Source: Mustelus asterias (Eukaryota). Taken from it: DNA of 64,000 nt. Shown in pieces: positions 14,364-63,940 of this stretch. Position numbers and translations under genes: made by a program. Below the pieces are notes generated by a model that was not told where the DNA came from, did no database searches, and saw nothing but the letters and a program-made list of their open reading frames with translations. The stretch spans positions 248,001 through 312,000 of the forward strand of contig NW_027590419.1 of assembly GCF_964213995.1 (NCBI RefSeq). Reading direction: 5' to 3'. The stretch's first letter is position 1, and each line of letters opens with the position of its first letter.

Positions 14364-14394
14364 CCCTAATATTTCTCATTTGCTGATTTGCATG

Positions 14395-15365: not shown

Positions 15366-15422
15366 CTGTGACGAGGAAATGTTTTTAACGTCGTGACTGC
15401 TGGTATCTGGAATGTTCTGCCT

Positions 15423-31950: not shown

Positions 31951-33515
31951 ACGATCCCGGCAGGATTTACTGTTTGATAATCCAGCTGTTTGGCCCCGTT
32001 ATGAGCACACCTTCCATGGCCATCAAGTCCGGAAGTCGGCCTTGAACCCTTGAAGAATGAGAGGCGATCCCATTGAAACAGACTTAAAATTCGTACAGGG
32101 TGTGACAGGGTGGATGTAGATTGGATGTTTCCCCTGGCTGGTGAGACTAGAACCAGGGGACACAATCTCAGAATCAGGGGCAGACCATTGAAGACTGAGA
32201 TGAGGAGAAATTTCTTCACTCAGAGGGTGGTGAATCTTTGGAATTTTCTATTCCAGGGGGATGTGGAAGCCCAATCATTCAGCATGTTCAAGACGCAAAT
32301 CGATTGTGTGAAATAAAATAGGAATCTGTGTGTGTGTGTGTGTTTGTGTGCGTGTGTGCATGCGTGTTTGTGTGTGGACATGTTTCCGTGTGTGTTTATT
32401 ACTGTGTGCGTCTGAGTGTTACTGGGTGAGAATATCTGTTTCTGTGTGTTTTCATAGAATCCTAGACTCCTGCAGTGCAGAAGGAGGCCATTTGGCCCAT
32501 TGAGTCTGCACCGACCACAATCCCACCCAGGCCCTATTCCCGTAACCCCATGCATTTACCCGAGCTCGTCTCCCTGACGCGGAGGGACAATTTAGCACGG
32601 CCAATGCACCCGAACCAGAACGTCTTTCAGACTGTGGGAGGAAACCGGAGCACCCGGAGGAAACCCACGCAGACACGGGGAGAACGTGCAGACTCCGCAC
32701 AGACAGTGACCCAAGGCGGGAACCGAACCCGAGTCCCTGGCACTGTGAGGCAGCAGTGCTAACTGTCAGTTTGATGTGTGTGTGTGTTTTTCTGTGTGTT
32801 TGTGTGTGTGTGTTTATTGTGTTTGTGTGTGTAAATTTGTGTGTGTGCTTTTTGTGCGTGTTTTATGTGTGTTTGTGTGTGCGTACTTTGTGTGTGTGCG
32901 TGTTTTGTGTGTGTTGGTGTGTGTGTGTTTTGTGTGTGTTGGTGTGTGCGTGTTTTGTGTGCGTACGTGCACCATGATCTGTTTGAATGCTGGCGCAGGA
33001 TCGATGGGCCAAATGGCCTACACCTGCTCCTATTTTCCTTTGAGATTTAAATACATTGACACACATGCACGCTGACACACACACACAGAAAGATATACAC
33101 AGTGTGGACGTATTTATTGACCACTTAATGTGACTGAATGCTACACATCCCAGTTTACCAAAGACACACAATATTCAGCAGCATTGTAAACAGCGCAGCT
33201 GGAAACATCAAATTGGGGATTTGGTTTGAAAAAGGGTCAAAGCCTCTCTTGCTAAAGGCTGTTTGTCTATATTGTGCTGACAGTGATACACTGCCATCCT
33301 CTGCTGCCTGCTGGACACTGCTCCAGCCGCAGAGAGAGTGAAGTAGATCAGAAACTCACTGGGAGAGAATGCAGCTTCACACAGTATCCATCCAAAATGA
33401 CAGGAGCATCAGCAACACACACAAGCTCCGTGTGGAGACTGAGAGGGGCTCAGTGTGGAACACAAACCTTCACACTAAACCTGGAAGGACATTGATAAAG
33501 AGTTTAAAACAAAAC
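30761..33515 (+). repeat. Duplicated block (copy of ~24700-28225)
   Basis: 52-bp array, CR1 fragment, SINE, GT microsatellite and unique flank in the same order; paired ORFs 27847/33138 and 27983/33274. Confidence 0.9.
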
Positions 33516-41100: not shown

Positions 41101-42035
41101 TACTGCCCACTCAGATACAGCTGGCTGCAATATCCCCTTGAAATATATCTGTTGTGTACAGAGTCACATGTTTTTTTGATCTGTGTCCCTGAAAGAACTA
41201 TTGAATAATCTTTAAACACCTGCATTCATTATCACAGAACAGGGCCAACATGGGGGAATCCAGTATCAGGGAGGGCACAGTTTAAAATTCATACAGCTCC
41301 CATTAAAGATGGAGATGAGGAGGAATAATTTCTTCTCTCAGGGGGTGGTTAGTGTTTAGAATTCCCTTCCCCAGAGAGCAGTGGGCGTTGGGACATTGAA
41401 CATATTCAAGGGAGTTGAGGGTTATGGGGAGACAGACAGCAAAAAGGAGCTCAGACCACAGTCAGATCAGCCATGATCTTATCAATGGGAGGAACAAGCT
41501 CGAGGGGCAGAATGGCCCACTCCTGCTCCTATTTCTTATGTTCTGTGTGGTACCTTCAAAGGCCACCGCACTCAGCTTCACAGGAACACTCCCTGACACT
41601 CTCTATCTCAATCACTTCCCCTCTCTCTGTGTGACTCTCACCCCATTCCTTTCCTCCCCTCTCTCTGTTACTCTCTCTCTATCTCTATCCCTGTTTCTCC
41701 AGCTGGATGCAGAGTGGGAAAGAGAGGCTGATATGGAGGGAGTTTTCATCTGTATCTCACTGCATTTTCTGAACTGCCTTGTCCTTGTTTGATGAGAAGT
41801 CTCACAACACCAGGTGTCGGTCCCCAACAGGTTTGTTGGACAGGTCCAAACCTGTTGGACTTTAACCTGGTGTTATGAGACTTCTTACTGTGTTTACCCC
41901 ACTCCAACGCTGGCATCTTCACATCTTGTTTGATGAAACAGTGAAATGGGAGATTGACTTTGTAATGGGATGTGTGTGTGTGTGTCTGCATGTGTGTGTA
42001 TCGGTTTGTGTATCAGTGTGTGTGTATGCATCGGG

Positions 42036-42335
42036 GTGTGTGTCGGTGTATGTATCAGTGTGTGTGTATGTATCAGGGTGTGTGAGTGTGTATCGGTGTA
42101 TGTATCAGTGTGTGTGTATGTATCAGGGTGTGTGAGTGTGTATCGGTGTATGTATCAGTGTGTGTGTATGTATCAGGGTGTGTGAGTGTGTATCGGTGTA
42201 TGTATCAGTGTGTGTGTATGTATCAGGGTGTGTGAGTGTGTATCGGTGTATGTATCAGTGTGTGTGTATGTATCAGGGTGTGTGAGTGTGTATCGGTGTA
42301 TGTATCAGTGTGTGTGTATGTATCAGGGTGTGTGA
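42036..42335. repeat. Same 50-bp minisatellite, 6 units (in the duplicated block)
   Basis: Identical unit and flanks to 8411-9160. Confidence 0.95.
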
Positions 42336-45300
42336 GTGTGTATCGGTGTATGTACCAGTGTGTCTGTGTGTGTATATCTGTGTATTTATCTGTGTGTGTA
42401 TGTTGTGGTATGTACCAGTGTGTCTGTGTGTGTATATCTGTGTATTTATCTGCGTGTGTATGTTGTGGTATGTATCAGTGTGTCTGTGTATGGATTAGTG
42501 TGTGTGTGTGTATCAGTATGTGTATCGGGGTGTGTGCGTATGTACCGACGTGAATATGTATCTGTGTGTGTATGTATCAGTGTGTGTGTCAGTGTGTGTG
42601 TCAGTGTGTGTATATCGGGGTGCTGTGTATCAGTCTGTGAGCTGGTCTGCACAGGTGTATTTGGGTGTGTGTGAAAGTGTGTGTGTGTATTCTGCATGTG
42701 TGTATGTGCGTGTGTGAGTATCTGTGCATGGGAGGTGTGTGTGCATCTGTGTGCCTATATGTGAGAGTGTGGGTGTGTATGTGAGAGAAATTGTGTGTGT
42801 GATTCTGTGTGTGAGTGTGTCAGTGTTTGCCTGCATGGGGGTTAGTGAGTGAAACATAGAAACGAGAAGCAGGAGGAGGCCATTCGGCCCTTCGAGCCTG
42901 CTCCACCATTCATTTTGATCACGGCTGATCATCAAATTCTATATCCTGATCCCCCGCCTTCCCCTCCATATCCCTCCATCCCTTCAGCCCCAAAAGTTAT
43001 ATCTAATTTCTTCATGAAATCACATGTGCAAGTTCCTAGCCACCTGTGTGTGTGTGTGTGTGTGCATGTACCCGTGTCTGTATACATGAGAGTGTGCATG
43101 TAGTTGTGTGTGTGTGCGTGTGTGTGTATATGTGTGTGTTGTGGGTCAGTCTGTGTGTCTCTGCTCCCATTCTCTGTGTCTCTGGAACACAGATTCTGCC
43201 TGAGCAGCTCAGCATTTGATCATTTCCTGTTTCAATATCTGCCCTTTCCCCAGTGGGACTGAACTGTCTGTAAATCATGTTGGAAGGGACCTTAGGGCCC
43301 AGTCCTGCAGCTAGGGGAGAGACAGAGAGGGAGAGACAGAAAGAGGAACAGATTGGGATTGGTAATGAGGGCCAAGGTTCCCACAAACACTTCAAGATAA
43401 GAAGGGAAATGGAGAGGACTGATAAAGAACAACTTTTTCTGCTGGTCGGGGAGTCCAGGACTTGGGGGACATTGGATTTTAGACAATGTTTCGGGTTTTA
43501 GACTTTTCGGAGTGAAATTCAGGAACACTTTGCCACACGAGGTGTGATATTAGTTTGGAACTACCTTCTATAATTCACAGTTGATGCTCAGTCGCTTATT
43601 AATGTTCAAACCCGAAGTTGATAGATGGTATTTTACACACAGGAGAAGCAATTTAAAATCAATGGGTCAATGTTAAAATAGTTGCAGGAACAGAGAGACC
43701 TGGGGTTTCAGTTCATTTTTACATCTTAGAGATTCAACCTGGGGCTCAGAATCTGTCAGTTGAATCTACTTTTCCTGTCCCGAAAACGTGTCAACAATTG
43801 TGTTGGGGAATGTGACAAAAGGTGACATTCCTGCATCCTGCACAGTGGGGTTGGGAGGTTGTTTGAAAGGAGATTCAGAAAGTGTCAATTAGATTGTGTC
43901 TCTTTGCAGAAGGTGAGTATTTCACAGGAGATGCCTTGAGATAAAGGAAAGTTTTACCAATGTCTGCGTAACTTTCAAAGTCTCCAGACGCATGAAGGGG
44001 GCAGAGATTTTGTAATATTCAGAGCAGGAGATGGGGGACAATCACAGAATTGAAGATGTGAGGCCATCTCTTGTTTCTGAATGTCAATCTGTAGCTTTTA
44101 AACTTTAGTCCTGGGCTAATCATTCCAAGTTTGCAATCCCACACTTTGCTGTTGTGAATTTTGAGTTGTAAATTTTCTGAAATTGATTCTGTAATAAAAA
44201 TCCCTGCAGGATGCAATGATTCCCATTCTGTCTGCTGCTGCAAAGCCCCAGTTTGTGTCTCAGTTTCACTCTTTATCAGCCATTTAAGATCCAAGAGTCA
44301 TAGAATTCCTACACTACAGAATGAGGCCATTCAGCCCAACAAGCCTGCCCCAACAATAATCCCACCCAGGCCCGAATCCCCCTGACCCTCAGGGGCAATT
44401 TAGCAAACGTGCAAACTCCACACAGTCACTCGAGGCGGGGAATCGAACCGAGATCCCTGGCGCTGTGAGTCAGCAGTGCTAACCACTGTGCCACCGTGTC
44501 GCCCGGTGATGAGACAGAACGTATGTTACAGTGCACAGAAATAGGCAGCATTGTCAGCATTTTAGCTGGAAGCTTCAAATGACAAAGGGATCTTAATAGT
44601 AGAGTCACAGAATCCCTGCAGTGCAGAAGGAGACCATTCAGCCCATCAAGTCTGCACTGACTCTCTGACACAGCATCTTGACCCAGCCCTATCCCCGTAA
44701 CCCCACACATTTACCTTAATCCACCTAACTACACAGTTTTGGACAGTAAATGGCAATTTACTGTGTCCAATCCACCTCACCTTCACAGCTTTGGAATACA
44801 CTGGCACGGATTTAGAAATGGTTAAAGGACAGAAAACAGAGCTGAGGTACAAATGGGTCATTTTCAGGGTGCCAGGCTGTGACCAGCGGCTTATCACAAG
44901 GATCAGTACTCGGGAGCCCAGCTATTCACAATCCATATCATTGATTTGGACGTTTGGGATCAAATGTAATATTTCCCAGTTTGTACATGACATGAAAGCA
45001 GGTGGAAGTGTGAGTTGTGAGGAGGATGTAGACTCTTCAAGGGGATGTGGGAGAGGCTGAATTAGTGGTGAAACCACACACAGAGTGTTGTGGACAGTTT
45101 TATCCTCTTACCTAAGGAAAGATATTCTTGTCATAGAGAGACTTCAATGAGGTTTCACTGCATTAATTCCTGGGATGGAGGGAGTGTCCCCTGAGGAAAG
45201 ATTAAATAGACTGGACTTTTATTTTATGCACTTTGGAAAAATGAGAGGTGATCTCATTCAAACTCAGACAATTCTTACAGGGCTCAGCAGGGTAGAGTCA

Positions 45301-45609
45301 TAGAGGTTTACAGCATGGAAACAGGCCCTTTGGCCCAACTTGTCCAATGCCAACCAGATTTTACCATTAAGCTAATACCAATTGCCTGCATTTGGCCCAC
45401 ATCCTTCCATGCCAATCTTACCAATATAACTGTCTAAATTGTACCCGTCGCTACTACGACCTCTGGCAGCTTGTTCCAATCCCCCACCACCCTATGTGTG
45501 AAAAGAATTGCCCTCTGGACTCTCATCCCACTCATCTGAAACTTATGTCCTCTAGTTTTAGACTCCCCTCCCTTTTGGAAAAGATGTTGACGAGCTTATC
45601 AAAGAACAA

Positions 45610-46195
45610 AGAGAATTACAGCACAGGAACAGGCCCTTCGGCCCTCCAAGCCTGCACCAACCATGCTGCCCGACTGAACTAAAACCCCCTACCCTTCCGG
45701 GGACCATATCCCTCTATTCCCATCCTATTCATGTATTTGTCCAGACGCTCCATAAAACTCACTATCGTATCTGCTTCCACTACCTCCCCCGGCAGCGAGT
45801 TCCAGGCACCCACCACTCTCTGTGTAAAACACTTGCCTCGTACATCTCCTTTCAACCTTGCCCCGAGCACCATAAACCTGTGCCCCCGAGTAATTGACAC
45901 TTGCACCCTCGGAGAAAGCTTCTGACTATCCACTCTGTCCATACTCCTCATAATCTTGTAGACTTCCATCAGGTCTCTCTCTCTCCCCCCCCCCCCCAAC
46001 CTCCGTCGTTCCAGTGAGAACAAAGCAAGTTTCTCCAACCTCTCCTCATAGCTAATGCCCTCCATACCAGGCAACATCCTGGTAAATCTTTTCTGTACCC
46101 TCTCCAAAGCTTCCACATCCTTCTGGTAGTGTGTCGACCAGAATTGAACACGATATTCCAAGTGCGGCCGAACTGAGATTCTATAAAGCTGCTAT
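45610..46195 (-). mobile_element. CR1 LINE 3' fragment
   Basis: EYRVQFWSTHYQKDVEALERVQKRFTRMLPG. Confidence 0.85.
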
Positions 46196-46562: not shown

Positions 46563-49333
46563 CTCTACAAGACCACCCCTAAGCCTACTCAAGGGAAAAA
46601 AGTCCCAGACTATCCAGCCTCTCATTATAACTCAAACCAACAGGACCCCGTAGTTTAAACTAGATAGGTTGTGGGGAGGGGATAAAAATGAGGTGACTGA
46701 GGGTGAGGAAGGTAGCTCGCAAGCAGAGAAGGGTTATGGGCAGTGCAAGAGGGCGGATGGACAGGGAATAGAGAAGGGGAGAGCTCAGACCTAAGGATTG
46801 AGATGTGTTTACTTTAATGCCAGGAGTATAGTGAGTAAAGGGGATGAGCTCAGAGCGTGGATCGATGCCTGAAAGTGTGATGTGGTGGCCATTACGGAGA
46901 CTTGGATGTCTCAGGGACAGGACTGGATACTCCAGGTGCCGGGATTCAGATGTTTCAGGAAGGACAGGGAGGGAGGCAAGAGAGGGGGTGGAGTGTCTGA
47001 AATATTAAAAATATTCTGAAACCCTTTCAAAGTGAAATTAAGGAACACTTCTTCACACAAAGGGTGTTCTCGAATCACAGAACAGCAGGAGGCCATTCGG
47101 CCCATCATGTCTGCCCCGATCCCGGAAGAGCCACCCAGCGAGTCCCATTCTCCAGCCCTGTCTCCTCAGCCCCCTAAATCAATCACTTTCAAATATGTAT
47201 CCGCCTCTCTTTTGAATCCTCCTATGGAATCTGCCTCCACCTCTCTCCCAGGCAGCGCATTCCAAATCCTAACAACTCTCCGAGTAAAGAAGTTTCTCCT
47301 CATCTCACTCCCAGCTCCCTTTCTGACCATCTTGAAATTGTGACCCCTTCGTCACTGACACACCAACGAGTGGAAACAGAATATCCTTCTTCACCCTGTC
47401 AACATTGTTCATCATTCTGAACACCTCGATAAGGTCACCTCTTCACCTTCTCTGCTCCAAGGAGAATAAGGCCAATTTCTCTCATCTTTCCTTGGATCTA
47501 AAATCTCTCATTCCTGGAATCATTCTAGTGAATCTCCTTTGCACTCTCTCTCTCTCTCTGCCTCTCTCGAGGACTTTAACGTCCTTCCTTAAATAAGGTG
47601 CCCAGAACTGATCCCAGTGCTCCGAATGTGATCTGTCCAATGATTTGTAGAGGTGTAGCATCACTTCCTTGCTTTTATACTCTATGCCTCTCTTTATAAA
47701 CCCAAGGATCCTATCAGGCTCCTTAACAACTGTTTCATCTTGCCTGGCCACCTTCAGAGAATGAATCACTTGAAACCCAAGGCCCATCTGCTCCTGTAGT
47801 CCCCTCAACGTTGTACCATTGAGTCTGTATCGTCTCCCCATGTTTCTTCCACCAAAATGCATTCCCTCCCATTTCGCTGCATTGAAATTTATCTGCCAGG
47901 TGTCTGCCCATTTGGCCAACTTGTCCACGTCCCTCTGAAGTCGCTCAGTGTCATCCTCACAATTCACTCTTCTCCCGAGCTCAGCATCATCTGCAAATTT
48001 GGAGATTGTGCGTTCAACCCCCGTCGCTAAGCTGTTAATATAAATCAGAAACAGCAAGGGTCCCAACACTGATCCCTGGGGAACACCACTTTCAACTCGT
48101 CTCCAGTCTGAGAAATGCCCATCTCTACCTCCCCTCTGTTTCCTATCTCTTACCAAACTTCTAATCCATGCTGCCAAGGACTCATCCATCCCTAATATTT
48201 CTCATTTGCTGATTTGCATGTTAGTGGAGCGGTGTAAAAGGCATGCGGAACGCTTGCCTTTTTCAGTCGAGGCATAGATTACAAAAGCAGGGTAGACATG
48301 TTGGAGCTGTATAAAACTTTGGTGAGGCCACAGCTGGAGTACTGTGTGCGGTTCTGGTCGCCACATTATAGGGAGGGTGTGAATGGACTGGACAGGATGC
48401 AGAGGAGATTCACCAGGATGCATCTGAGCTGGAGTGTTTCAGCTATGAAGAGAGCTGTGGGCCACACGGTGGCACAGTTGTTATCACTGCTGCATCACAG
48501 CGCCAGGGACCCAGGTTCGATTCCCGGCTTAGGTCACTGTCTGTGTGGAGTCTGCACGTTCTCTCCGTGTCTGCGTGCCTTTCCTCTGGGTGCTGCGGTT
48601 TCCTCCCACAGTGTGAATGATGTGCTGGTTAGGGTGCATTGGCCGTGGTAAATTTTCTCTCAGTGTAACCGAACACCAGAGTGTGGCATCTGGGGAATTT
48701 TCACAGTAACTTCACAGTGTTAATGCAAGCCTCCTTGTGACACTAATAAACAAAATTAAAACTGAGATGTTGAGTAGGCTTGTGTTGTATTCATTGGAGC
48801 AGAGAAGACTGAGGGGGCGACCTGATTGAGGTGGACAAGATTATGAGAGACATGAGCAGTGTGGATCGGGAGCAGCTGTTCCCCTTAGTTGAAGGGTCAG
48901 TCACGAGGGGACATAGGTTCAAGGTGAGGGGCAGGAGGTTTAGGGGGGATGTGAGGAAAATCTGTTTTACCCACAGGGTGGTGACAGTCTGGAATGCGCT
49001 GCCTGGGAGGTTGGCAGAGGCAAGTTGCCTCACATCCTTTAAAAAGTAGCTGGATAAGCACTTGGCACATCATCACATTCAGGGCTATGGGCCAAGTGCT
49101 GGTAAATGGGGTGAGGTCGGTATGTTAGGTGGTCCTCACGTGTCGGTGCAGACTCGATGGGCCGAAGGGTCTCTTCTGCACTGTATGAATCTGTGATGAG
49201 GAAATGTTTTTAACGTAGTGACTGCTGGTATCTGGAATGTTCTGCCTTGATTCGCTGTAAGGATTCGCATTCCAACCATTATTCATGTAAATTGAGTCTG
49301 TGTCTTTATCTGCCCTGTTTGTGAACAGAATTC

Positions 49334-49378
49334 CCACTCACCTGAAGAAGGGGCTTGGAGCTCCGAAAGCTTGTGTGG
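49334..49378 (+). ncRNA. Minimal type I hammerhead ribozyme motif (duplicate)
   Basis: Identical to 15509-15553. Confidence 0.65.
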
Positions 49379-52300
49379 CTTTTGCTACCAAATAAAGCTG
49401 TTGGACTTTAAGCTGGTGTTGTTAAACTTCTTACTGTGTTTACCCCAGTCCAACGCCGGCATCTCCACATCATGTTCTGCCTGAGTCAGAGGTGGGAGAA
49501 GATTCCATCAAGAGGAAATTGAATGGGAAGCTGAAGGGAAAATATTGACAGGGTTACGGGGAGAGGGTGAAGGATTGGGAATAGTGAAACTGCTCTTGCA
49601 GTGTGTCGATCCAGGCTTGACGGGCTGAATGGCCTCCTGTGCTGTCACCATTCTATGATTCACACACAAGTTAACTTCTCAGTGTCTATTAGGCCCCACT
49701 CGTTCCTCCATGATCAGTTCCAGCATTTCAAGTTCAGATCCCAGTACTTTTTAGTTGGGGCATTGAGGAGTAAAACAGAAAGAGGAATGAGAGTGTCGGT
49801 GCGCTTATGTTTTTGTATTTCTGTGTGTGTGTGTGTGAGAGAGAGACAGTTTCTAAGTGTGTGCAAGTGTCTATTTCAATGTGTGTTTCTGTGTGTGTGA
49901 TTGTGTATCTCTGCGTGTGTCTGTGTGTGTATGTGTGTGTCTGTGTGTGTGTATTTGTGTCCCTCTGCGTGTGTGTCCGTGAGTGTCTGTGTGTTTCTCT
50001 CTTTGCCTGTGTGTCTGTGTGTGTGTCTCTCTCTGTGTCTTTGTGCATGTGTGTCTGTGAGTGTGTGTTTGTGTCTCTCTGCGTGTGTGCGTGTGTGTCC
50101 GTGAGTGTGTGTTTGTGTCTCTGTGTGTGTGTCCGTGAGTGTCTGTGTGCCTCTCTCTTTGTCTGTGTGTGTGTGTGTGTGTGTGTGTTATGATCTGTTT
50201 GAGTGGGGGAGCAGGCTCGATGGGTCAAATGGCCTCCAACTGCACATATTTGAGATTCAAATACATTGANNNNNNNNNNNNNNNNNNNNNNNNNNNNNNN
50301 NNNNNNNNNNNNNNNNNNNNNNNNNNNNNNNNNNNNNNNNNNNNNNNNNNNNNNNNNNNNNNNNNNNNNNNNNNNNNNNNNNNNNNNNNNNNNNNNNNNN
50401 NNNNNNNNNNNNNNNNNNNNNNNNNNNNNNNNNNNNNNNNNNNNNNNNNNNNNNNNNNNNNNNNNNNTTGACATATTTATTGACCATTTAATGTGACTGA
50501 ATGCTACACATCCTGGTTTGCCGATGACACAAAACATTAGACAGCATTGTAAGCAGCGTAGCTGGAAACATCACATTGCAAAGAGTTATTCATATTTTGT
50601 ACATGGACAAAACTGGTGGAGAGGTTTCAGTGCAGGGAAATGTAAACTGACACAACTTAGATTTAAAAGGGATAGAACAACATACTTTAATAAATGATGA
50701 AATGACAGAAACAGTGGAAGCTCCAAATGTCCAGATATTTCACAGCTGGATTCACACAAGACACACAGCAATGGATCTGATATTGCGGAATTGTTGTAAA
50801 TGTGGTGAATCTCAGTACGGAGGCTGTCTTCATGTTACAATGTTAATCTGATCACTCTCATCAAAACAGGATCAACATCTCTGTACAATGTGAGTGAATC
50901 ATCAGCTCAAATAGTTCAGGTTCAATGTTTAAAATAACCAGTCACTTTTCTGTGGCTGCTTTGGGAATGTCAGTGGAATGTAGTTCACAGTAAAGTGTGA
51001 ATAATTGTACTGGGGAATAATTGGAAGCAGTTTCCATTGAGAGCTTCCTGCATTCTGGAAATGTGTGTGATCTATTCAGAGATAGGAAATGGACGGATGA
51101 ATAAAGATGCAGTTTGTTGTTAATTACATGAGATTGTCTGCCTTGAAGATTCACAAGTTCCATGTGCTGAGAGAAAGGAATGATTAAACAATGTCTATAA
51201 TTCAAATCCTTCAGACAAGTGAAAAAGCAGGAGAACAACTGAACCCACAAACGCTGCCACAGACAGTATTCGAAGCTTCAACTTCATGTTTGAATGTGAA
51301 GGGCTGATTGAAATAAACAGGAGGCCACACTGGGATGCTGAGCAATTTGATCCCTGTTTTTCCTAAACTTCAAATAAAAATCTGTGATGAAACATTCCTT
51401 GGACAGAGCAGAGGGGATTTTACTCTGTATTTACCCCATTACAGTATTTGTGTTGGGAACATTTGATGAACAGTGCAGATTAAACATTATTCTTAACCGC
51501 TGGAATTTAAGTTGGGGGCTGATTTAATCAAACATTGAAAATAATGAGGGAAAGGGAGAGGCTGATAAAGAACAAGTTTTTCTGCTGTCTGGGAACTCCA
51601 GGATTTGGGAATATTTGAATGTTAGCCTCAGTTTAGAATTTTGGAATTGTAGAAATGGAAACATTGCCAGATGTGGTGTGGAGTTAGTTTGAAACAATCT
51701 TCTGCAAATGGCTATTGATGCTCAGTCACTTGTTATTATTTTAAATCTGGGGTTGATAGATTTTCCTTAGTCCAAGGGGTTAAGAGACAGAGAGTTAGAT
51801 CACAGATCAGCCAGGATCTTACTGAATATTGGAACAGGCTTTCAGGAAGATTGTTCCAGATTCCAAACACCCTCTTGATGAAGTGCTTTTCCTCACTTCA
51901 CTTCTGATCCATTTCCCCATCATTTAGAATCTGTGCCCTCTAGTTCATCACCATCTCTTGAGAGGGAAGAGTTTCTCACTCTTTAACCTGTGCATACCCC
52001 TTAGGATCTTGAATCTCTCTTTCAAGTCTCACCTCAGCCTTCTTTTCTCCAAGGAAAACAGTCCCAACCTCTCCAATCTACCCTCGTAGCTACGGATCTT
52101 ATTCCCTGGAATCATTCTTGTGAATCTCCTCTGCACTCTCTCCAATGTCTTCACACCCCTCCTCAAGTACGGTGCCCAGAACTGGGCAGTCTCCAGATGA
52201 GGCCTAATAAGTGTCTTATACAAGTTCAATATGAACTCCTTACTCTTGTCCTCAATTCCTCCATTAATAAAAGCTGGGATACCATATACTTCATTTACTG

Positions 52301-53630
52301 CTCTCTCAAAGTGCCCTGCCACCTTCACTGACGTATGTACATATTAGAATCATGGAATCCCTACAGTGCAGAAGGAGGCCATACAGCCCATCGAGCCTGC
52401 GCTGACAACATTCCCACCCAGGCCCTATCCCCGTGATGCAACGTATTTACCCTGATAATACTGGCATGAATTGAGAAATGGTTAACGGACAGAAAACAGA
52501 GCTTAGGTACAAATGGGTCATTTTCAGAGTGGCAGGCTGTGACCAGCGGCTTATCACAAGGATCAGTACTCGGGAGCCCAGCTATTCACAATCCATATCA
52601 TTGATTTGGGCGTTTGGGATCAAATGTAATATTTCCGAGTTTGCAGATGACTTGAAAGCAGGTGTGAGTTGTGAGGAGGATGTAGACTCTTCAAGGGGAT
52701 GTGGGAGAGGCTGAATTAGTGGTGAAACCACACACGGAGTGTTGTGGACAGTTTTATCCTCTTACCTAAGGAAAGACATTCTTGTCCGAGAGGGACTTCA
52801 ATGACATTTCACTGCATTAATTCCTGGGATGGAGGGATTGTCCTCTGAGGAAAGAAAATAAACTGGACTTTTACTTTATGCACTTGAGAAGCATGAGAGG
52901 TGACCTCATTCAAACTTGGACATGTACCCGCCTCTACTACTGCCCCTGGCAGCTCATTCCAGACACTCACCACCCTCTGTGTGAAAAGAATTGCCCCTCT
53001 GGACCCTTTTGTATCTCTCCCCTCTCACCTTAAACCTACACCCTCTAGTTTTAGACTCCCCTACCTTTGGGAGAAGATATTGACTATCTAGCTGATCTGT
53101 GCCCCTCATTATTTTATAGACCTCTATAAAATCACCCCTCAGTCTTCTACGCTACAGGGAAAAAAGTCCCTGTCTGTGCAACCTCTCCTTAAAACCCAAA
53201 CCATCATGTCCCGGTAGCATCCTAGTAAATCTTTTTTGCACTCTTTCTAGTTTAATAATATCTATTCTAAAATAGGGTGACCAGAACTGTACACAGTATT
53301 CCAAGCGTGGCCTTAACAATGTCTTGTACAACTTCAACAAGACGTCCCAACTCCTGTATTCAATGTTCTGACCAATGAAACCAAGCATGCTGAATGCCTT
53401 CTTCACCACTCTGTCCACCTGTGACTCCACTGTCAAGAAGCTATGAACCTGTACCCCGAGATCTCTTTGTTCTATAACTCTCCCCAACAATGAAAATCAG
53501 ATTTAATACCACCAGGCGCAATCAAAAAGAAAAGAAAGTAAAAATATACTTCATACTGAGGAGAATGATCAGCAGTTGTTGGAATCAATCTTGATTCCAA
53601 AATGAAACAGGTTGTTTTAAAGCTGTATAT

Positions 53631-53662
53631 TGTAGTGCTTTTTTTCCACCAGGAGAGGGCAG
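53631..53662 (+). promoter_or_regulatory. Candidate extended CTCF site
   Basis: TGTAGTGCT-N6-CCA-CCAGGAGAGGGCAG: CTCF core plus upstream module at the usual spacing. Confidence 0.5.
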
Positions 53663-54387
53663 AAGGACATTGCATTAAGTTCATTATCGGAGCGCGTGTC
53701 TTTATTGAAGAAAATTTGATTGAAGGAACAAATGCAGAAACATAGTGTTAACACTGATAACAAACTTATTATTTTTTAAAATATTCTTATGAGTTGTCAA
53801 TGTTGCCACTCCTGTAGTTATGTACCAACTATTCGATGGATAGACTAGTTCCCATTGCACAAGTTCCCAAATTATCGAACGATATTTTAGGACTAACATC
53901 AGGACCTTCTTCTTGTCAGACCGGGACTGGTCACAGTGTGGAATGAAACTTCAGAAAGAACGAGAGAGCAAAATGCACTGAAATCGTTGGATCGTAGAAC
54001 AGAAGGAACGTTGTAAGCTCTCCCGCAATGAAAGAGCTATAACAAGAAGGAGGAAACAGCTCTTCTCATTTATAACTATCTCGTGAACTGCAACTTGTCG
54101 AAGATCCAAGTGAAGAATTGCACCCTGGAATTACCAGTATTCACCAGTAGAGAGCAGTGTGTCGCGTGAGAAATATTTAATCTGGGCGTGTCAGGTGTGT
54201 CCTCAGAGGTTGTGTGGGTCTGTGTCAGTGTGAAACGCTCAGTATGGGTGGCTAAAGTAGAACCCGCCTAATGTTGTCAGTTCAACATAAACACGGCACT
54301 GAACTGAACCCGAAGAGAATACTTGGTTCCGGGTTAATTTCCATCTCCTGGTTCAAAGCTGATCTCGGTGTTGTGTGTGAACTGAGA

Positions 54388-54720
54388 ATGGTCAGGATTG
54401 GCATCGACGTTTTGTTGTTTATCACTCTGATCTGCACGGGGATGACCGGAGAAGCTGAGTTGCTGCAGCTCCCTCCACGGATGGTTATCAGTGAAGCGAG
54501 AAATATATCCATGAACTGCACTATTTCCATTACGTTTGACATCGTGCGTTGGTATAAACAGCTCCCGAATCAGTCACCCCAGCATCTGGTGATGGCCACA
54601 AGAGGAACCGATCAACACGGGAGGATCACTGCTTCGATCGGTGAAGGCAACAAACTCAGCATCCTGACTGTGAGGGACGTACAGGTTTCAGACACTGCCA
54701 CCTATCTCTGCGCCGTGAGG
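54388..54720 (+). CDS. TRAV: T-cell receptor alpha/delta variable segment, leader and V in one exon (111 aa, germline, unrearranged)
   Basis: ATG at 54388 gives signal peptide MVRIGIDVLLFITLICTG-MTG, continuous with an Ig V-set domain (MNC, WYKQ, DTATYLCAVR). RSS starts immediately at 54721. Alpha vs delta usage cannot be resolved from sequence alone. Confidence 0.9.
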
Positions 54721-54759
54721 CACAGTGTAAAAAACACAGGCAGGTCCCGTGCCAAAACC
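54721..54759 (+). other. 23-bp-spacer recombination signal sequence
   Basis: CACAGTG (54721-54727), 23-nt spacer, GCCAAAACC (54751-54759; consensus ACAAAAACC). Confidence 0.92.
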
Positions 54760-55118
54760 TGCACCGCTTTCAAAAACCGCTCCGCAGAAATATCAGTGTT
54801 TCAACAAGCGCGGTATTAAATTCCAATGGTAAGGGGAATGAGAGCGAAACATTTCTTGAATCAGAAAATTTTAAAAAGCTTAAAATGAAGAGAGTTGGGA
54901 ATGTATTCAAAGAAAATGGAAGAGGTTACATGCAAATCAGAATGAAAGAAAGACAAAGCGAAAAAGTGCAGTAAGAATACGTAAAGAGCCGGACTGTATG
55001 ACCTGAAGCCAACAGACAGCACGGCCTCCCAGTCTTTCCTGTCGTCTATCACGCAAGTCTTGGACGACGGCGAGCGGGAGAGCCTGACAGACCGGTAGCT
55101 CTGGATGAGCTGACAAAG

Positions 55119-55682
55119 TCCCGTGTCTGCGTGGGTCTCCTCCGGGTGCTCCAGTTTCCTTCAACAGTCCAAAGATGTGCAGGTTAGTTTGATTGGCCAT
55201 GATAAATTGACCCTAGTGTCAGGGGGATTAGCGGGGCAAATGTATGAGGCTACGGGACTAGGGCCTGGGTAGACTTGCGATAGGTACAGACTCGGTGGGC
55301 CGAATGGCATTTTTCTGTACTGTACAAATTCTATGATCTATGATTCTATTATGTGGATATGTGCCAGTCTTTACAGGTGACCGTGCGTGAACCTGTTTCC
55401 AATATGCGGCAGTGCTGTCCACGGGAGGGCGCTCTCTGATCACTTATGAAAAATCACGATTCCCTTCAGAGGGAGCGACTTTTTGGTTGACTTTGGTTGA
55501 CTTTTTGGTTCGGTTGATTGGCCATGCTAAAATTGCCCTTAGTGTCCTGAGATGTGTAGGTTAGAGGGATTAGTGGGTAAATATGTAGGGATATGGAGGT
55601 AGGGCCTGGGTGGGATTGTGGTCGGTGCAGACTCGATGGGCCGAATGGCCTCTTTCTGTACTGTAGGGTTTCTTTTCTATGA
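55119..55682 (+). mobile_element. Two 5'-truncated HE1-type SINEs (55119-55350; 55511-55682)
   Basis: V-domain and tail GCAGACTCGATGGGCCGAATGGCC. Confidence 0.8.
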
Positions 55683-55820
55683 TTGAAGATGTAAAAATGG
55701 GCGGAGAGACGGAGTCACTTTCGACCTCATAACATCCCCCTGACTGTTTCAACTTCTCCATTTCCAGGTCTTATGCAGACAGTGATCACTGCCTCTGTTT
55801 CTGGTGTTCAGACTGGAACT

Positions 55821-55980
55821 ATGGGGGTGAAAGTCTGTCTGTCTCTGGCTATTGTCCTGATCACAGGTTGGTCATTTTGAACCTTTGACTGAAATCCGCC
55901 AATCACCATATTCATTGCCCATTTCCATTTCTAGGCGATTATTCCGTTGTTGTTACTCCTTCTAACCCGCTGCGTGTCTG
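55821..55980 (+). pseudogene. Truncated V-like gene: leader exon 55821-55866, intron 55867-55934, start of second exon
   Basis: 46-nt phase-1 exon ATG...ACA G|GTTGGT encoding MGVKVCLSLAIVLIT(G); acceptor TTTCCATTTCTAG|; then [15 protein letters not shown] before the sequence switches to zinc-finger DNA. Same 46-nt leader architecture as the V at 62835. Confidence 0.65.
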
Positions 55981-55989
55981 TTGTCTATT

Positions 55990-56793
55990 TTCACTCAGTT
56001 ATCCAGCCTGCAGACACACCAGCGAGTTCACACTGGGGAGAGGCCCTTCACCTGCTCTCAGTGTGGGGTGGGATTCACTCAGTCATCCCACCTGTGGATA
56101 CACCAGCGAGTTCACACTGGGGAGAGGCCCTTCACCTGCTCTCAGTGTGGGAAGGGATTCTGTGATTCATCCAGCCTGCTGAGACACCAGCGAGTTCACA
56201 CTGGGGAGAGGGCATTCACCTGCTCTCAGTGTGGGAAGGGATTCTGTGATTCATCCAGCCTGCTGAGACACCAGCGAGTTCACACTGGGGAGAGGCCGTT
56301 CACCTGCTCTCAGTGTGGGGAGGGATTCACTCGGTTAGCCACTCTGCGGATACACCAGCAAGTTCACACCGGGGAGAGGCCATTCACCTGCTCTCAGTGT
56401 GGGAAGGGATTCATTGATTTATCCGCCCTGTGGAGACACCAGCGAGTTCACACTGGGGAGAGGCCGTTCACCTGCTCTCAGTGTGAGAAGAGGTTCAGTC
56501 ATTTATCTGACCTGCAGAGACACCAGCGAGTTCACACTGGGGAGAGGCCATTCACCTGCTCTCAGTGTGAGAAGGGATTCACTCGGTTATCCAGCCTGCG
56601 GACACACGAGCAAGCTCACACTGGGGAGAGACCGTTCACCTGCTCTCAGTGTGGGAATGGATTCACTCGGTTATCCAGCCTGCGGACACACCAGCTGGTT
56701 CACACTGGGGAGAGGCCGTTCACCTGCTCTCAGTGTGGGAAGGGATTCAGAGTTTCATCCCACCTGCTGAGACACCAACAAGTTCACGAGTGA
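55990..56793 (+). pseudogene. 5'-truncated tandem C2H2 zinc-finger array (9 complete fingers plus a partial one); open frame, no in-frame ATG
   Basis: Repeats of CSQCGKGF...L.RHQRVH with TGERPF linkers at an 84-bp period; starts mid-finger ([10 protein letters not shown]); stop TGA at 56791-56793. Confidence 0.85.
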
Positions 56794-57039
56794 TTCCAGG
56801 GGTTGGATTCTGCTGTTATTGTTTCTGCTCTCAATTACATCCAGGACTGCGTTTTGTTCATTCTCACAGTTGGTCAATGGGGAGGGTCGGAGGGTTTCTT
56901 TCTGCTGGACTGGCCGGTCTCATGATTTTGCCTCCAGTGGGCTGATGCTCTTTGAGTCTTGTTGCGAATACCTGGTTTCAAATTTCACAAGGATCACAGA
57001 GTGACAGGGTGTTAGGAAGTTCAGAGATATTTAATCAGC

Positions 57040-57345
57040 ATTTCAGTTTGAATCCTCCCAATGCCCATCCAATTTCCTTTGTAATTGTTTATTGTCTCCA
57101 CTTCCTCCACCCTCGTAGGCAGCGAGTTCCAGGTCATTACCATTCGCTGCATCAAAATATTCGTCCTCACATCCCCCCTTCCTCTCTGACCCAAAACCAT
57201 AAATCTGTGACCCCCCTCGTCCTTGTCCCGTCAGCTAATGGGAACAGCTTTTCTTTGTCCACCTTGTCTAAACCTGTCAGAATCTTGTCCACCTCTATCA
57301 AATCTCCCCTCAACCTCCTTTGCTCCAAGGGGAACAACCCCAGCC
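57040..57345 (-). mobile_element. CR1 LINE 3' fragment
   Basis: LFPLEQRRLRGDLIEVDKIL...EKLFPLADGTRTRG. Confidence 0.8.
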
Positions 57346-59489
57346 TGAGATCGACAATAAAGAACAAACTAACAGAATATGTTAATACCTGAAATCAAAT
57401 GTGAATGTTTAATTCCTGTTTTAAAGATATTGTGAATATATTGTCCTGGACAATAAAGGAATTGGAATAACTCACCTTGGGTGTGGTTGAATGGAATATA
57501 TCAATCTGGTATCCACCTACAGTCTCCCTCCCTCGTGGCACTGTGGATGTACTTACACCTCAGGCATTGTAACAGTTCAGGAAGGCAGTGTTGGGATTGA
57601 CCATGGCCGAGGCAGCTACAGACAGCCACATATTCTGTTATAATTGAAGGACTGCAGATTGAATGTGAGGCATTATGGGACTGGGCTATCTTGACCACAT
57701 TCCTGTGACTGCTCAGTTACTGCAATCACGGACCATTAAAGCTGCTTAGCAGGGCCCCGACAGAGGACCTGGTGAGAATATTTATTCACAATGAGTTAGA
57801 ATTAAACTTATTCCAGGACCGGCTGGTGTTCAGCAGCTGAGATTCCTGAATCTGTAAAAAGGGGGTCCGACCAATCAACAAACAGTACTAGGTAGTTGGT
57901 TAAGAAGTTAAAAAGCATTCTGAACCATTGCTTAACCTATCGTCAATTTGTGATAAGAACTGTGAGGGACTTGTGACCAGATATTTGGTGAAGTGATGGT
58001 CTACTCCAAGTAGCATTGGACTCAAAAGCAGATCTCTGAGAGTAGATTCTAATGGTTATAATCCTACCCAAGCATGGCCAGTGAAAAATCAGAGCTCGAG
58101 TGGGGACCGCACAGGTCTCTTACCTGCCATTTGGAAACTAAGAACAAGAAGCTTATAGATAAAATGATGAGAGAAGAGAGCCAACGTTTCGATTCTGGAT
58201 GACACTTTGTAAGAAGCTCCTCCAGACTCAAAACATTGGCACTATTCTCTCTCCACAGATGCTGTCAGACCTGCTGAGATCTTCCAGCATTTTCTGTTTT
58301 TGTTTCAGATTCCAGTATCCGCAGTATTTTACTTTTATGATAATTTGATTCGGTCTGATTGGAATCCCCACGACCCTCCCGCAAAACAGAGGGAGTGGTG
58401 GCAAAGGGAGAAAAAGGATAAGGATGATAAAGTCTGGGTTCTGATTCTCCGAGCCCACGTAGAATTAACAAAACGAGTGAACCAGTTTATAAAGAATAGA
58501 AGTTACCCATCCCTAACAAAAACTGATCAAATTAAAATAATTAGGTTGATGAATATAACAAAAAACATTAATGGGTGAAGTTTAAAATCAAGTTTGTTTT
58601 GTTGTTCAGTACGTTTTTTAAACTTGTGTAAAGTGTCAAGTTTTTTCTGCTCACTCCCCACCCCTTTAGATTCTGCAGACAGTTGATTTGTTTTTAAATT
58701 GCCCGGAAACTCGTGTCTATTTCAGTTTATAATTGAAGATTTATGGGAATTGGCTGAGATGGTCTTTTGACATTTTTAAAGTATAAAAAAGTGATCTTGA
58801 GAAGCCAACTTGGTAGAAAGAGGTGGAGGGAGAGATGTTTACAGAGAGGTGTTGAGAGCTGTTGGTTTCACAAGTTATCCACGTTTTCGGAGCCGTCACT
58901 TCATGTCCTGGTCTGAGAGGGATGGAGAGAAGTCTGTTCAATTGTTAAAGTTAAGCTTTCTGTAATAACTGTTAATCGACACTTTGCTTTTCATCTCTCT
59001 AACTTGTTACATTTTTAATGGTTAATAAACTTTCTGATTTCACCATTTGAAGCTTTCTTTTTTGCCATATGGTTAAGTCGCTGGAACCTGGTGTGATTCA
59101 CGATTAGAGAATTAAACATTCCCACTGTTTTCTGTGTTAATAAAGTTTCTAACATCACCACAGCAACAACACTGGAAATGAGCTTCCTTGGGTTAGAAAG
59201 TGCTTTCGGACATCGGAAGTCTGTAAAAGGCATCAATAAAAATCTTTCATTCTGTTTTCGACTGAAATATCTTTCTAAAGATTAAATCCATTGTCACCAT
59301 CTTTCTACGGGCCCAGTAAAGTTTATTTTTAATTTCATTTTTAAATTTAAATTCCCGGATTGGGGAAATGAGTGGTCACCTAGGATTTCCCGGATTCTGT
59401 CTCCAGTCGGTTCAGATATTCTTTCCGCTCCAGAGGACACAGGCAGTCTGGCAGGAATAAGAATCCGGGAACTTACCGAGGAGACAGTG

Positions 59490-59755
59490 CCGTGCTCAGG
59501 GAACGCTGCACCGTCAGAGCGGCCAGCCTCTCGGTGACCTGTTCAATCGGGGGCACCGTGTTCCCTCTCAGCTGGAGGTGGTACATCACATGGTCACTGT
59601 TTCCAAGAAGAGCAGAGAAATGTCCTGTTTGATTTCTGTTCACCAATCACAATTCCTGAAACAGACAGAACACTACAATATTACGCTGAGTCTAAATTGG
59701 CTGCTGTGTTTTCAGTGACAGGGAAACACTTTGGGACATCAAACTCTATAAATCG
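59490..59755 (+). mobile_element. Degenerate DeuSINE-like (SacSINE1/AmnSINE1-type) element
   Basis: Resembles the Deu domain from memory (…CCCTCTCAGCTGGA…AAGAAGAGCAG…AAATTGGCTGC…CTTTGGGACATC); no alignment was run. Confidence 0.5.
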
Positions 59756-59937
59756 TCAAATATTCATTCTCTAAGCTGCCCCCATTGTTTTAGTTTGGTA
59801 ATATATTTATTAGTAATACATATGTACATATATTAGAATTAAATTTTGAGATACCAGCACGATTTCAGGTTCCACACCAGACACACTCTGATCACAATGT
59901 TTTCCTAACGCTCTGTTATGTTGAGTGAGGCTCTGAC

Positions 59938-59976
59938 AGTTTTTGTACAGGTTCAGCCCAGCTCTGTGTCTCTGTG
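59938..59976 (-). other. 23-bp-spacer RSS
   Basis: Minus strand CACAGAG (59976-59970), 23-nt spacer, ACAAAAACT (59946-59938). Confidence 0.9.
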
Positions 59977-60314
59977 GGTCTCAGTGCGCAGTAATAAACC
60001 CCGGAGTCTGCCAGCTCTGTTTTAGACACATTCAGAGGGACTGTGCGGGTTGAATCATTGAGTTCTACTGAAAAACGGTCCCCTTTGGATCTCCCTGTGT
60101 TCCCGGTGTATTTATGTGTCTGCAGCAGATATTCCATGGATCCACTGGGATACTGACGGTACCAGAAAAGATCAAAGCTGTTGCTTGTAGCTGTGTAATT
60201 ACAGAGCAACCGAACATCATCTCCTTCAGTGACGGTGACTGCAGCCGCTGTCTGTGAAACAGAATCTCCTCGGGAATGTCCTGTAAGAATCCAAAGAAAT
60301 ATTAAATTAAACAT
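59977..60314 (-). CDS. TRAV: T-cell receptor alpha/delta variable segment (V exon 60280-59977; in-frame ATG at 60314)
   Basis: GDSVSQT...VTEGDDVRLLCNY...LFWYRQYP...DRFSV...DSGVYYCALR; acceptor-like TTCTTACAG|GA at 60281; RSS adjacent. Confidence 0.92.
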
Positions 60315-61763
60315 TGCAATTTCACTCAGTTTTCCCAGAATTTGCCCGTTATCGGCAAAAATAATCTCAGAGAAAAATCAGACAGCAAAACAGAAACATA
60401 TTTTTCACAGTTCAGTGGCTGGAATGGGAAGACGTTTGTGGCGATTAAATAAAACTTCCACCATAAACATTCTCTTCTTTCTAACGAGATCAGTTCCTCG
60501 TCTTCAGTCCCTGTAACTGGAAACAGCTCACGGTCTGTCTGTTTGAAATGTGATGTTTGCCAAAGTGGTATCACTGGTATCAGAGGAGCTTGAATCTGAG
60601 CCCAATTGATTCTCTATCAATCCCGGGGGGAAATGTGCCCAATCCCAACAGTGTTCAGTGTTGAGACCAGAGAGATCCAAATAACTTTTCGATGTTGTGA
60701 TCAATCCATTCCCTGATCAACCCCCTTGCATTGAGCGAACAGCCCGACAGAATATAGTGTGTGGTAATGGTGTGTAACACAGAGTGAGCAACTTGTGAAC
60801 TTACCGATTAACAGAGCTGCCGCTGTGAGGAATAAATACAGAGTAACAAGACACATGATTGCAGAGCTCGCGGTGAATTTGACCAGAACGAGTTGAAGCT
60901 GAATTTGTGTCGGTCAAGAGTTGGGAAAAGGGTGAGTCATATCCGGCTCCCTGTTGATTGGTTTACTGTTGAGAACGTCATCAGATGACATCCAATCGGC
61001 ATCAATCTCCTATGTTCTTCAGTTCAACCAATGACCTCACAGTTCCTTTATCTGCAATTCATCCTATTGGCGGAGGGACGAAAGGAACAAAGTGAATTTG
61101 GTCATCCCACGACAGGGGATTACTTTCCCCTTCAACCATCATTTCAGGAACCGACCGGTCCCCTGAGTCCTGATGGCTCTGTTCTGACATGGAGAATGAC
61201 AATATCCATCCTCACAGCAACATAACAAGCAGTTTGTTATTAATCATGTTTGGGATATCAGCTATAGCGCGGGGGAGGATGATGCTTTAGTCAAAACATC
61301 TACCTGATAAGAAGTGACAGAACAATGAATGGTCTGAGATATTTCCATATGATGTTCTCTCAATTTGTAATTTTGCAGTCTGTCAAATCCTCTTTCAGAG
61401 TGGAAATATAGCTTGCCTCCCCATTGGACTGCTGATCCAATCAGTGCCGAACAGGGAAAAGCAGCAAAGATCAATATCTCCAATGAAATATCCAAGAAAA
61501 CAGCAAAGGAGAGACGGGTCAGAGTGCGAACAACACAGGAAAACTGTGGGTGGGACTACCATAGGCAGTGTGGTGACCGCTAGGATTTATCTGCAAGGAG
61601 CTGAACTCAATAACAATGTCAAATTGGAAATTCTGTAACTTTGTCTCTCTATATGAGAGGCAGCTGAATGTCCATTCCATACTGCGGACCAGCATTCTTG
61701 CACCAGGAGTATCGGATTAGTAAGTGATTCAGTACAAAGCGAAATCCTCATCAGTGATGTTTG

Positions 61764-62061
61764 GACCTGGGTTCGATTCCCGGCTTGGGTCACTGTCTGT
61801 GTAGAGTTTGCACATTCTCCTCGTGTCTGCGTGGGTTTCCTCTGGGTGCTCCGGTTTCCTCCCACAGTCCAAAGATGTGCGGGTTAGGTTGATTGGCCAT
61901 GCTAAAATTGCCCCTTAGTGTCCTGGGATGTGTAGATTAGAGGGATTAGCGGGTAAAATATGTAGGAATCTGGGGGTAGGGCCTGGGTGGGATTGTGGTC
62001 GGTGCAGACTAGATGGGCCGAATGGCCTCTTTCTGTATTGTACGGTTTCTATGATTTCTAT
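61764..62061 (+). mobile_element. HE1-type SINE, slightly 5'-truncated
   Basis: B-box GGTTCGATTCC, V-domain, tail. Confidence 0.85.
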
Positions 62062-62297
62062 GAGAAAGGCATCGAAAACGAAAAAAAAGGGGTGTTGAAG
62101 TATCTCAGATCGATATTGCAAATGTAAGTTCCGATCATTAACTAATGTAACTGCAACTGGACCACACCAGTTGCTGTTTTTGAGTGTTGTCTTTTGTTGC
62201 AATGTTAAGAATCTCTGTCACTCTCTCTGTGGAAACTGAATTACCCGCGTGTGTGCGCGCGCACCCTGCTGGGCACTAACTGGAACTGCCAGTGTGG

Positions 62298-62337
62298 GGT
62301 TTTTGTACGGCAATCGCTATATCTCTGCAGCAGTGTG
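62298..62337 (-). other. 23-type RSS with 24-nt spacer
   Basis: Minus strand CACACTG (62337-62331), 24-nt spacer, perfect ACAAAAACC (62306-62298). Confidence 0.85.
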
Positions 62338-62835
62338 GGTTTCATGGCACAGAAGTACCCGGCGCTGTCGGAAATCAGTGTGTTACTGATCGTCAGCTCG
62401 CTAGTCTTGTTCTTTTTATCAAATTTGGAAGAAAACCGATCATTGAGGTCGGGATTCTTTTGCACAATCTCTCCAATAAGCTGAAACATGTACACTGGAG
62501 CTTTCCCGGGCTGCTGACTGTACCAGTACACATAAGGGTTGGAATCGCTTGTTTTCAAAGCGCAGGTTAGTGTGACATCATTTTCCTCTTTAACCTTTAT
62601 TCCAGGATCCAATTGTTCCACTTCGTCTTGGTGGCTCCTTTCTAACAGAAACAACAGCAATATGACAATCAGAGTTAGCCTCAGATCAAACGATACAATT
62701 ATCATTATCACTATTGTTTTATCAACAAGAATATCTGGGTTACAGCTGTCAGGAGGAGCTTGTAGTTTTACTGGGAAGAAAATACTTACTGAGAAGTGAG
62801 AGAATGATGAGGATCGGAGTGAGATAGTTCACCAT
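62338..62835 (-). CDS. TRAV: T-cell receptor alpha/delta variable segment, two exons (leader 62835-62790; V exon 62641-62338; 148-nt intron)
   Basis: Leader MVNYLTPILIILSLL with A|GTAAGT donor; TTTCTGTTAG|AA acceptor; V: KRSHQDEVEQ...VTLTC...VYWYSQQPGKAP...DRFS...DSAGYFCAMK. Confidence 0.92.
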
Positions 62836-63940
62836 GATGCTTCCTGAGTCTGTAACTCTGCAATGAGAGAAATCCTGTCAGAGACAGAAAGACACTGTTC
62901 CACTGCACTGCTGATCCAACCAATGAGAGGAATGGAGCAGCGGCAGCAATCCGTCCAATCACGAGAGCAGAAAACGGAAGTCGTGGGCGGGGATGCAGTA
63001 GACAAAATATTGAGTGAAGTGTGCGGCAACTTCAGCTGCACCCGGAACAGAAATAGCGAGACTTCCATCTCCGGAATCTGTCACCATTCTGAACCTGCTC
63101 ACTGTCCAAGTGACTGAGAAGAAATAGAGAGGGAGGGGCAAAACGGGGCCAGGGACATGAACAAAATAGAAACATCGCGTATCAATGCAGGAGATGTGGC
63201 CACTCGGCCCATGGTATCTTGGCCTAACAGATTTCAGAGTTGACAGATTTCTTCAATTCATCTTTCAAACCTCGAATCTCTCACAGTCACGGACATTTTT
63301 CTGCTTTCAACTTATCTCTCATTTCCTTCTAAAACTTACTATTATCTCTTCTTCCGCCATCTCTTTCAACACCGCAGGGCCGAGATAAGAGTCGGTGCAG
63401 ACTTGATGGGCCGAATGGCCTCCTTTTGCACTGTCGGGATCCGATGACCACCTTCCAAGTTTAACAAATCGGAGAGTAATCAATTAATCTAATCGTTCCA
63501 TTGCCCTCTCCCCTCCTGAAGTAGACGCTTGTGTTTTCCAAAGTTCTGCCGGCGGAAACACTTTCCCGGAGTTGACCTGAACATCACACCTTGGTTTTAA
63601 AGGAATAAACAATTTATGGGAAGCAGAAAAGGAAGCTTAACTGGCAGATAGATTCTACTGGGAGACCTGTATTAGCAAAACCTTCCTTATATTTGTTTCA
63701 AAACAGAGCTTTTTCTCATAAGCCTTGGCTGTGGATCCCGGTGTTGCTTGTACCACTGGCCCACATGAAGGCAGGACCTCCCTGCTTCTGATTAGATCTT
63801 AATTCCGCAACCTCAGGGCTGGATATTCACATCAGCTCCGGGAGAGATGTTTCAGATCAGCTGTTAATTCCCATCAACTCAGGGCTGAATATTCAGATCA
63901 GCTCCAGGAGAGATGTCTCTGACCCTCAGACCAGACCCAC

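Follow-up and report, generated by a model that had tools for sequence, protein, structure and literature searches.

A probable chimeric pseudogene of a TCR V leader and a headless zinc-finger array in Mustelus asterias

Background

Truncated V pseudogenes and V relics arise in the birth-and-death turnover of antigen-receptor V families. Complex germline rearrangements that carry microhomology and templated inserts (MMBIR/FoSTeS, alt-EJ) are also known, as are chimeric genes at the junctions of segmental duplications. In passages of a report on the human IGL locus, ZNF280A/B, PRAME and GGTLC2 are placed among the V genes (PMC9282919). In elasmobranchs, the main text of another report locates some TCR alpha/delta-type V exons between IgH clusters (PMC12227049). 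The terms "zinc finger", "ZNF", "scattered", "orientation" and "pseudogene" have no occurrence in that main text; its table S1, which lies outside this count, may bear on the field of V genes described below. A literature search that covered titles and abstract openings, and few subscription papers, returned no fusion of a V leader with a ZNF gene and no interleaving of V and ZNF genes in sharks.

In this report, we analyze a stretch of 64,000 nucleotides of Mustelus asterias DNA (the window; positions 248001-312000 of contig G000:C387) in which the leader and intron of a V gene run directly into a headless array of C2H2 zinc fingers. Like the truncated V pseudogenes left by birth-and-death turnover, this locus keeps its leader and intron and has lost its V exon and RSS, but the lost part has been replaced by an unrelated gene piece and has not eroded. 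With MMBIR/FoSTeS, alt-EJ and segmental-duplication chimeras it shares two joins with 2-4 nt of microhomology, a kilobase-size insert from nearby, an inversion and later duplication. It differs from such cases in its partners, a TCR V gene and a ZNF gene, and its repair path is one that we infer. The IGL passages likewise describe zinc-finger genes between V segments, but these are whole passenger genes that are unfused to a V leader (PMC9282919). The elasmobranch antigen-receptor complex, as described in the main text of PMC12227049, also has TCR alpha/delta-type V exons outside a compact translocon. We conclude that the locus described here is very probably a non-functional chimeric pseudogene that resulted from a recent germline rearrangement mediated by microhomology.

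Results and discussion

Anatomy of the fused locus

The features of the fused locus are as follows, in window coordinates.

53484..55993, plus strand: duplicated V block (upstream V gene, spacer, and leader and intron of a second V gene); its left edge, 53484, is shared among copies
54430..54759, plus strand: open V exon (54430-54720) with a 23-spacer RSS; V-set E 3.9e-8
55780..55791, no strand: perfect 12-nt palindrome, 30 nt ahead of the leader ATG; promoter role putative
55821..55866, plus strand: leader exon of a TCR alpha/delta-type V family; ATG, phase 1, GT donor, 46 nt, hydrophobic
55867..55993, plus strand: V intron with 127 of its 128 native nt kept; the final G of the acceptor is missing
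55990..55993, plus strand: junction 1, TTCA microhomology common to the end of the V intron and a run of finger codons
55994..55998, plus strand: bases from the ZNF gene that restore an acceptor AG, 4 nt beyond the lost one, and shift the frame
55994..56793, plus strand: headless C2H2 array, consisting of half a finger, 9 complete fingers and a stop (56791-56793)
56794..59107, plus strand: 3' flank of a ZNF gene, collinear with unfused ZNF paralogs at 88-96%; several AATAAA/ATTAAA
59106..59107, plus strand: junction 2, AG microhomology between the ZNF 3' flank and an inverted V block
59106..63559, minus strand: V block with V exons 59979-60290 and 62340-62639

The block at 53484..55993 is present in three other fused copies (contigs C391, C1126 and C558) and in the unfused contigs C178 and C420, with pairwise differences of 0.2-1.0%. 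Its V exon is the sole one upstream of junction 1 within the window, positions 1-54,000 having none. The RSS of this upstream V gene (54721-54759) has a canonical heptamer and a nonamer with two mismatches, and is identical in the paralogous blocks examined.

To the right, homology to ZNF loci runs to 59107-59110 and is followed by the V block on the minus strand; therefore, the ZNF piece is about 3.1 kb long. In the unfused contig C119 and in C391, a homologue of this V block precedes the leader by 8-15 kb and has the opposite orientation. The structure is therefore of the inversion type, with a templated insert at the join. An earlier note on this DNA, made from its sequence, had proposed that a rearrangement destroyed a V gene and placed a headless ZNF piece behind the V leader. 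That event is real and recent, as detailed below, although junction 2, which bounds the ZNF piece, had been missed.

Several repeats were also observed in the window. Two SINE-like pieces lie at 55120-55345 and 55507-55682, of which the second (about 55486-55679) is confined to the L001-L009 subgroup and marks the lineage where the fusion arose. The V-free first 54 kb contains direct duplications that are 92-98% identical (7052-12762 versus 40678-45997, and 12833-16246 versus 46659-50067) and satellite arrays (for example, 514-2524 and 30761-31951).

A V leader and intron that end at the splice acceptor

The region of the leader (55680-55998) was used as a query, for which 40 of 168 candidates were scored (87-100% identical) and 20 loci were fetched. 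Sixteen of the 20 continue into a V exon, and four carry the ZNF join. V paralogs of the leader, whose lack would by the earlier note's own terms have refuted it, are present in the genome, and one of them is intact: in L005 (contig C178), splicing of a 128-nt intron yields a complete leader, a V domain and a 23-RSS. This V domain matches the Pfam V-set (E 2.6e-11) and 54 PDB entries, mostly TCR alpha chains (best E 1.6e-12). Judged by homology, the left part of the fusion is a true TCR alpha/delta-type V leader. A search of the genome with PF09291 for the TCR alpha constant domain gave zero matches, and its control was likewise silent. The leader exon at 55821-55866, which the note had recognized even though it is absent from the ORF track, was confirmed by its ATG and GT donor.

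In all 16 unfused paralogs, a 128-nt intron ends in a TTTTCAG acceptor, after which the V exon begins. Since every unfused copy has its acceptor at that site, the break can be placed at the final nucleotide of the V intron, and the fused copy has lost its entire V exon together with the RSS. An intron of 68 nt had been proposed, followed by about 15 framework-like codons, and neither was confirmed by the comparison. The native intron is 128 nt, and because the V exon begins beyond the native acceptor, the segment at 55935-55993 is not framework and lies ahead of the V domain. With its V exon and RSS lost, the fused copy is unable to rearrange and does not constitute a functional V segment.

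The palindrome at 55780-55791 is indeed a perfect one. It is not peculiar to the fused copy: it is found in all 20 fetched paralogs, altered in two, and is a generic upstream feature of the leader's V family. Among the closest unfused paralogs (L005-L020), the V exon is disrupted by a stop, a frameshift or an insertion in 15 of 16, and L005 alone is intact. In one of these loci (L018, on C1069), unrelated sequence breaks the V exon 17 nt in and is probably a transposon insertion. A tRNA-Val gene was observed upstream of copies of the same V leader family (G000:C71:7174720-7174794 and C119:529212-529284).

A zinc-finger array without its head

The right part of the fusion exhibits the tandem 28-aa fingers, TGERP linkers, terminal finger and 3' flank of a multi-copy C2H2 ZNF family. 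When the fingers and 3' flank were used as a query, 40 of 4841 candidates were scored, with 83-96% identity excluding the fused copies. All 28 ZNF paralogs that were fetched encode, within the finger exon, their own start codon and a distinctive first finger. Both are missing in the fused copy, which lacks what a functional member of the family would carry. As had been reported, the finger frame (55994-56793) is open over 9 fingers and has no in-frame ATG.

The exact ZNF donor was not found: among 40 scored of 4145 candidates, the best non-self match is 91%. A pattern specifying finger 5 occurs exactly in C387 and C391 only, with 15 further copies at one mismatch, and a pattern spanning fingers 2 and 3 has 100 exact matches. 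Because fingers are so widely shared, no single ZNF donor can be named.

Four copies of the join and their age

A 20-mer spanning the join occurs at four places, each on a different contig (C387, C391, C1126 and C558), and a 24-mer from the intron end occurs at 40. The fused copies have 9 (C387), 12 (C391), and 5 and 5 (C1126 and C558) whole finger units, they carry private SNPs, and their outer flanks differ. These data bear on the possibility that the join is an assembly chimera, a concern already raised in the earlier note. The region is highly repetitive, and the join is not bridged by independent runs among the matches listed. One study of another organism or sample has four public runs whose contigs cover the leader, intron and fingers, with no bridging piece among the matches listed; intron pieces in these matches end at 55993, as in unfused genes, and no splice joint is seen, although a contig gap proves nothing. 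An artifact would, however, have to create the identical join on four contigs. Because the four copies differ in finger number, SNPs and outer flanks, we consider misassembly exceedingly improbable and take the junction to be real.

Upstream of the join, fused copies differ from each other at 6-15 of about 2480 nt, and from the unfused C178 and C420 at 14-26. Downstream, C387 and C391 have 13 differences in 2317 nt. At a divergence of 0.2-0.8%, the event is estimated to be recent. C1126 and C558 (L001 and L002), which could be alleles, share a third junction, with microhomology of up to 3 nt, where the array breaks off after finger 5 and continues into the region ahead of a different V gene in the same orientation.

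Predicted products and the question of function

Splice acceptors were scored with a small matrix built from 18 V acceptors. The acceptor at the boundary of 55998 and 55999 scores 9.1 bits, compared with 5.5 bits for the native V acceptor and 0.7 bits for a minor acceptor at 55934. It retains the native pyrimidine tract, and its AG (55997-55998) is in phase 0 for the fingers, as had been stated, whereas the leader is in phase 1. Splicing of the leader to 55999 is predicted to read the fingers out of frame and stop at 56163, giving 70 aa. The product described earlier, 97 aa ending at 56180, is correctly predicted for a splice at the AG at 55933-55934, but the best acceptor is the one that yields 70 aa. 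Unspliced RNA is predicted to reach a stop after 19 aa.

Use of the minor acceptor at 55934 is possible, judging from its conservation: in an intact gene it would extend the reading frame by 60 nt, and 13 of 16 paralogs retain its AG. A codon-position count over the 60-nt segment 55935-55994 in 15 paralogs (L018 excluded) found 10 variable sites, distributed as 3, 2 and 5 by position.

We also considered whether the locus is a functional chimeric gene, in which the V promoter drives a finger protein in T cells, either by a minor acceptor between 56026 and 56027 or by an upstream phase-0 exon, or in which the product is a regulatory RNA. Such a gene would fit the retention of the ATG, donor and strong acceptor, the poly(A)-like signals downstream, the existence of four copies, and a finger frame that is open in all four as far as each extends. 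Yet the in-frame acceptors (56027, 56111 and others) score about -13.6 bits, in a range of -12 to -16, versus 9.1 bits for the out-of-frame site, and splicing at 56026/56027 would give a product of 270 aa whose signal peptide would route DNA-binding fingers to the ER. The upstream phase-0 exon that had been suggested to rescue the fingers has no candidate between 53484 and 55990, where the sole consensus-like donor, at about 54828, is intergenic. Two of the four copies are truncated, one has lost a zinc ligand, and the adjoining DNA was duplicated whatever its content.

The open frame itself carries little weight. It had been read as a mark of a recent event and as a hint of function, and only the first reading holds. 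In neutral simulations of the 792-nt finger frame, the share of runs in which it stayed open was 79% at 0.3% substitution, 65% at 0.6% and 46% at 1.0%, and gain or loss of fingers in 84-nt units cannot shift the frame. An open finger frame is therefore expected, because the event is so recent, and is not a sign of function. C387 and C391 differ by two non-linker substitutions, both of which change amino acids and one of which converts a zinc-ligand His to Arg; these are too few to measure selection. The sister fused copies are decaying. Overall, a functional gene is highly unlikely, and the locus is almost certainly non-coding. As a pseudogene, the locus would behave as follows: should the V promoter remain active, splicing would join the leader to 55999, the result would be the 70-aa out-of-frame peptide, which lacks the native cleavage residues, and no finger protein would be made.

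Mechanism of the rearrangement

The joins have 4 nt (junction 1) and 2 nt (junction 2) of microhomology and no untemplated bases, the pattern of microhomology-mediated joining. A target-site duplication and a poly(A) or other tail, as expected for a retroposed insertion (TPRT), are absent. That the join falls almost at a splice acceptor, beside a T run, might nonetheless suggest that a ZNF transcript was retrotransposed or trans-spliced onto the V acceptor. But the ZNF piece aligns collinearly with genomic paralogs over 3.1 kb and lacks a tail, and at least 2.5 kb on the left side is genomic sequence that includes promoter and intron. Moreover, the right flank is not the V exon found beyond the break in paralogs, and so there is no target duplication. 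Because of this collinearity, the missing tail and a right flank other than the expected V exon, a simple retroposed insertion is ruled out, and we find any origin through a ZNF transcript barely credible.

The reciprocal of junction 1, in which the 5' part of the ZNF gene would be joined to the start of the V exon, has 0 matches in the assembly at <=1 mismatch. A balanced inversion or translocation is accordingly unsupported, although absence from an assembly is weak evidence.

Because the exact donor copies were not identified, the path of repair is a reconstruction. Repair or replication would have switched template from the V intron to a neighbouring ZNF gene, and from there to a V block in the opposite orientation, in a process of the MMBIR/FoSTeS or alt-EJ type. 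The rearranged product would later have been duplicated, while 84-nt finger units slipped to give arrays of 9, 12, 5 and 5. In the C1126/C558 lineage, the remaining array would have been lost at the third join into another V unit. The two arms of C391 differ by 3.4%, more than a fusion this young would have accumulated; a simple fold-back within one copy therefore does not fit, and the template was probably another paralog. One observation counts against microhomology as the full account: the break is <=1 nt from the V acceptor and a strong AG was restored, which is a coincidence outside the reach of this model.

Germline RAG activity is known in sharks, which have germline-joined Ig genes. 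RAG might therefore have cut a cryptic RSS inside a zinc finger in the germline, with subsequent microhomology joining of the cut end to the V intron. The kept ZNF piece does begin with CAC, within the TTCA microhomology. With a 13-nt spacer, this CAC scores 2.3 bits, more than any of the 34 other CACs in the array and at the 93rd percentile of a background of 356 CACs. Genuine V RSSs, however, score 21-28 bits (17 sites). The spacer is 13 rather than 12, and six spacer lengths were tried post hoc. Of breakpoints placed at random in the array, 23% also fall within 5 nt of a CAC. Neither donor at junction 2 carries a CAC, the CAC at junction 3 scores -12.4 bits, and the V-side break is about 300 nt away from the V gene's own RSS. 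RAG cleavage at junction 1 is thus very unlikely. The same low probability applies to a broader form of the idea, that germline RAG cuts cryptic signals in ZNF repeats and shuffles the pieces into the V field, junction 1 being one product, transcribed in T cells. Microhomology-mediated rearrangement remains the reading that we prefer.

Genomic setting

To survey V segments genome-wide, we used a pattern consisting of a V end followed by a perfect 23-RSS. The pattern has 501 matches (255 on the plus strand, 246 on the minus strand) and its reversed control has 0; a few sites are double-counted, and haplotype duplicates may inflate the count. Among the matches listed, those on C71 extend from 4.5 to 19.4 Mb, at least 15 Mb, in both orientations, and others are located on C87-C104 and beyond. 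A 200-kb sample of C71 has seven V matches, a tRNA-Val gene and seven ZNF arrays in succession, with the V and ZNF clusters 14 kb apart.

The TCR alpha/delta-type V segments on C71 are interleaved with ZNF clusters and tRNA genes. At G000:C71:19363773-19396927, 11 V-RSS matches of one family lie on one strand at a spacing of about 2.45 kb, and constitute a recent tandem V array.

V genes had been described as lying on the plus strand before the fused block and on the minus strand after it. A local flip does exist, but there is one plus-strand V exon before the block, and after it come four on the minus strand, then +, -, +, -, +. Given the mixed orientation genome-wide, the flip does not mark the block as special. 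With V orientation mixed and V clusters next to ZNF clusters, joins between the two families and flips of strand are the debris to be expected in this region.

Conclusions

In itself, the fused locus matters little: it adds a dead V gene and a dead ZNF copy to two families that turn over quickly. The fusion is useful as a dated marker of shuffling in the V/ZNF region. If it were true that V/ZNF breakpoints are enriched at cryptic RSSs, germline RAG as a driver of locus evolution would become directly testable. The setting is of greater interest than the join: about 500 matches to a V end with a 23-RSS, in both orientations, with ZNF clusters interleaved among those on C71.
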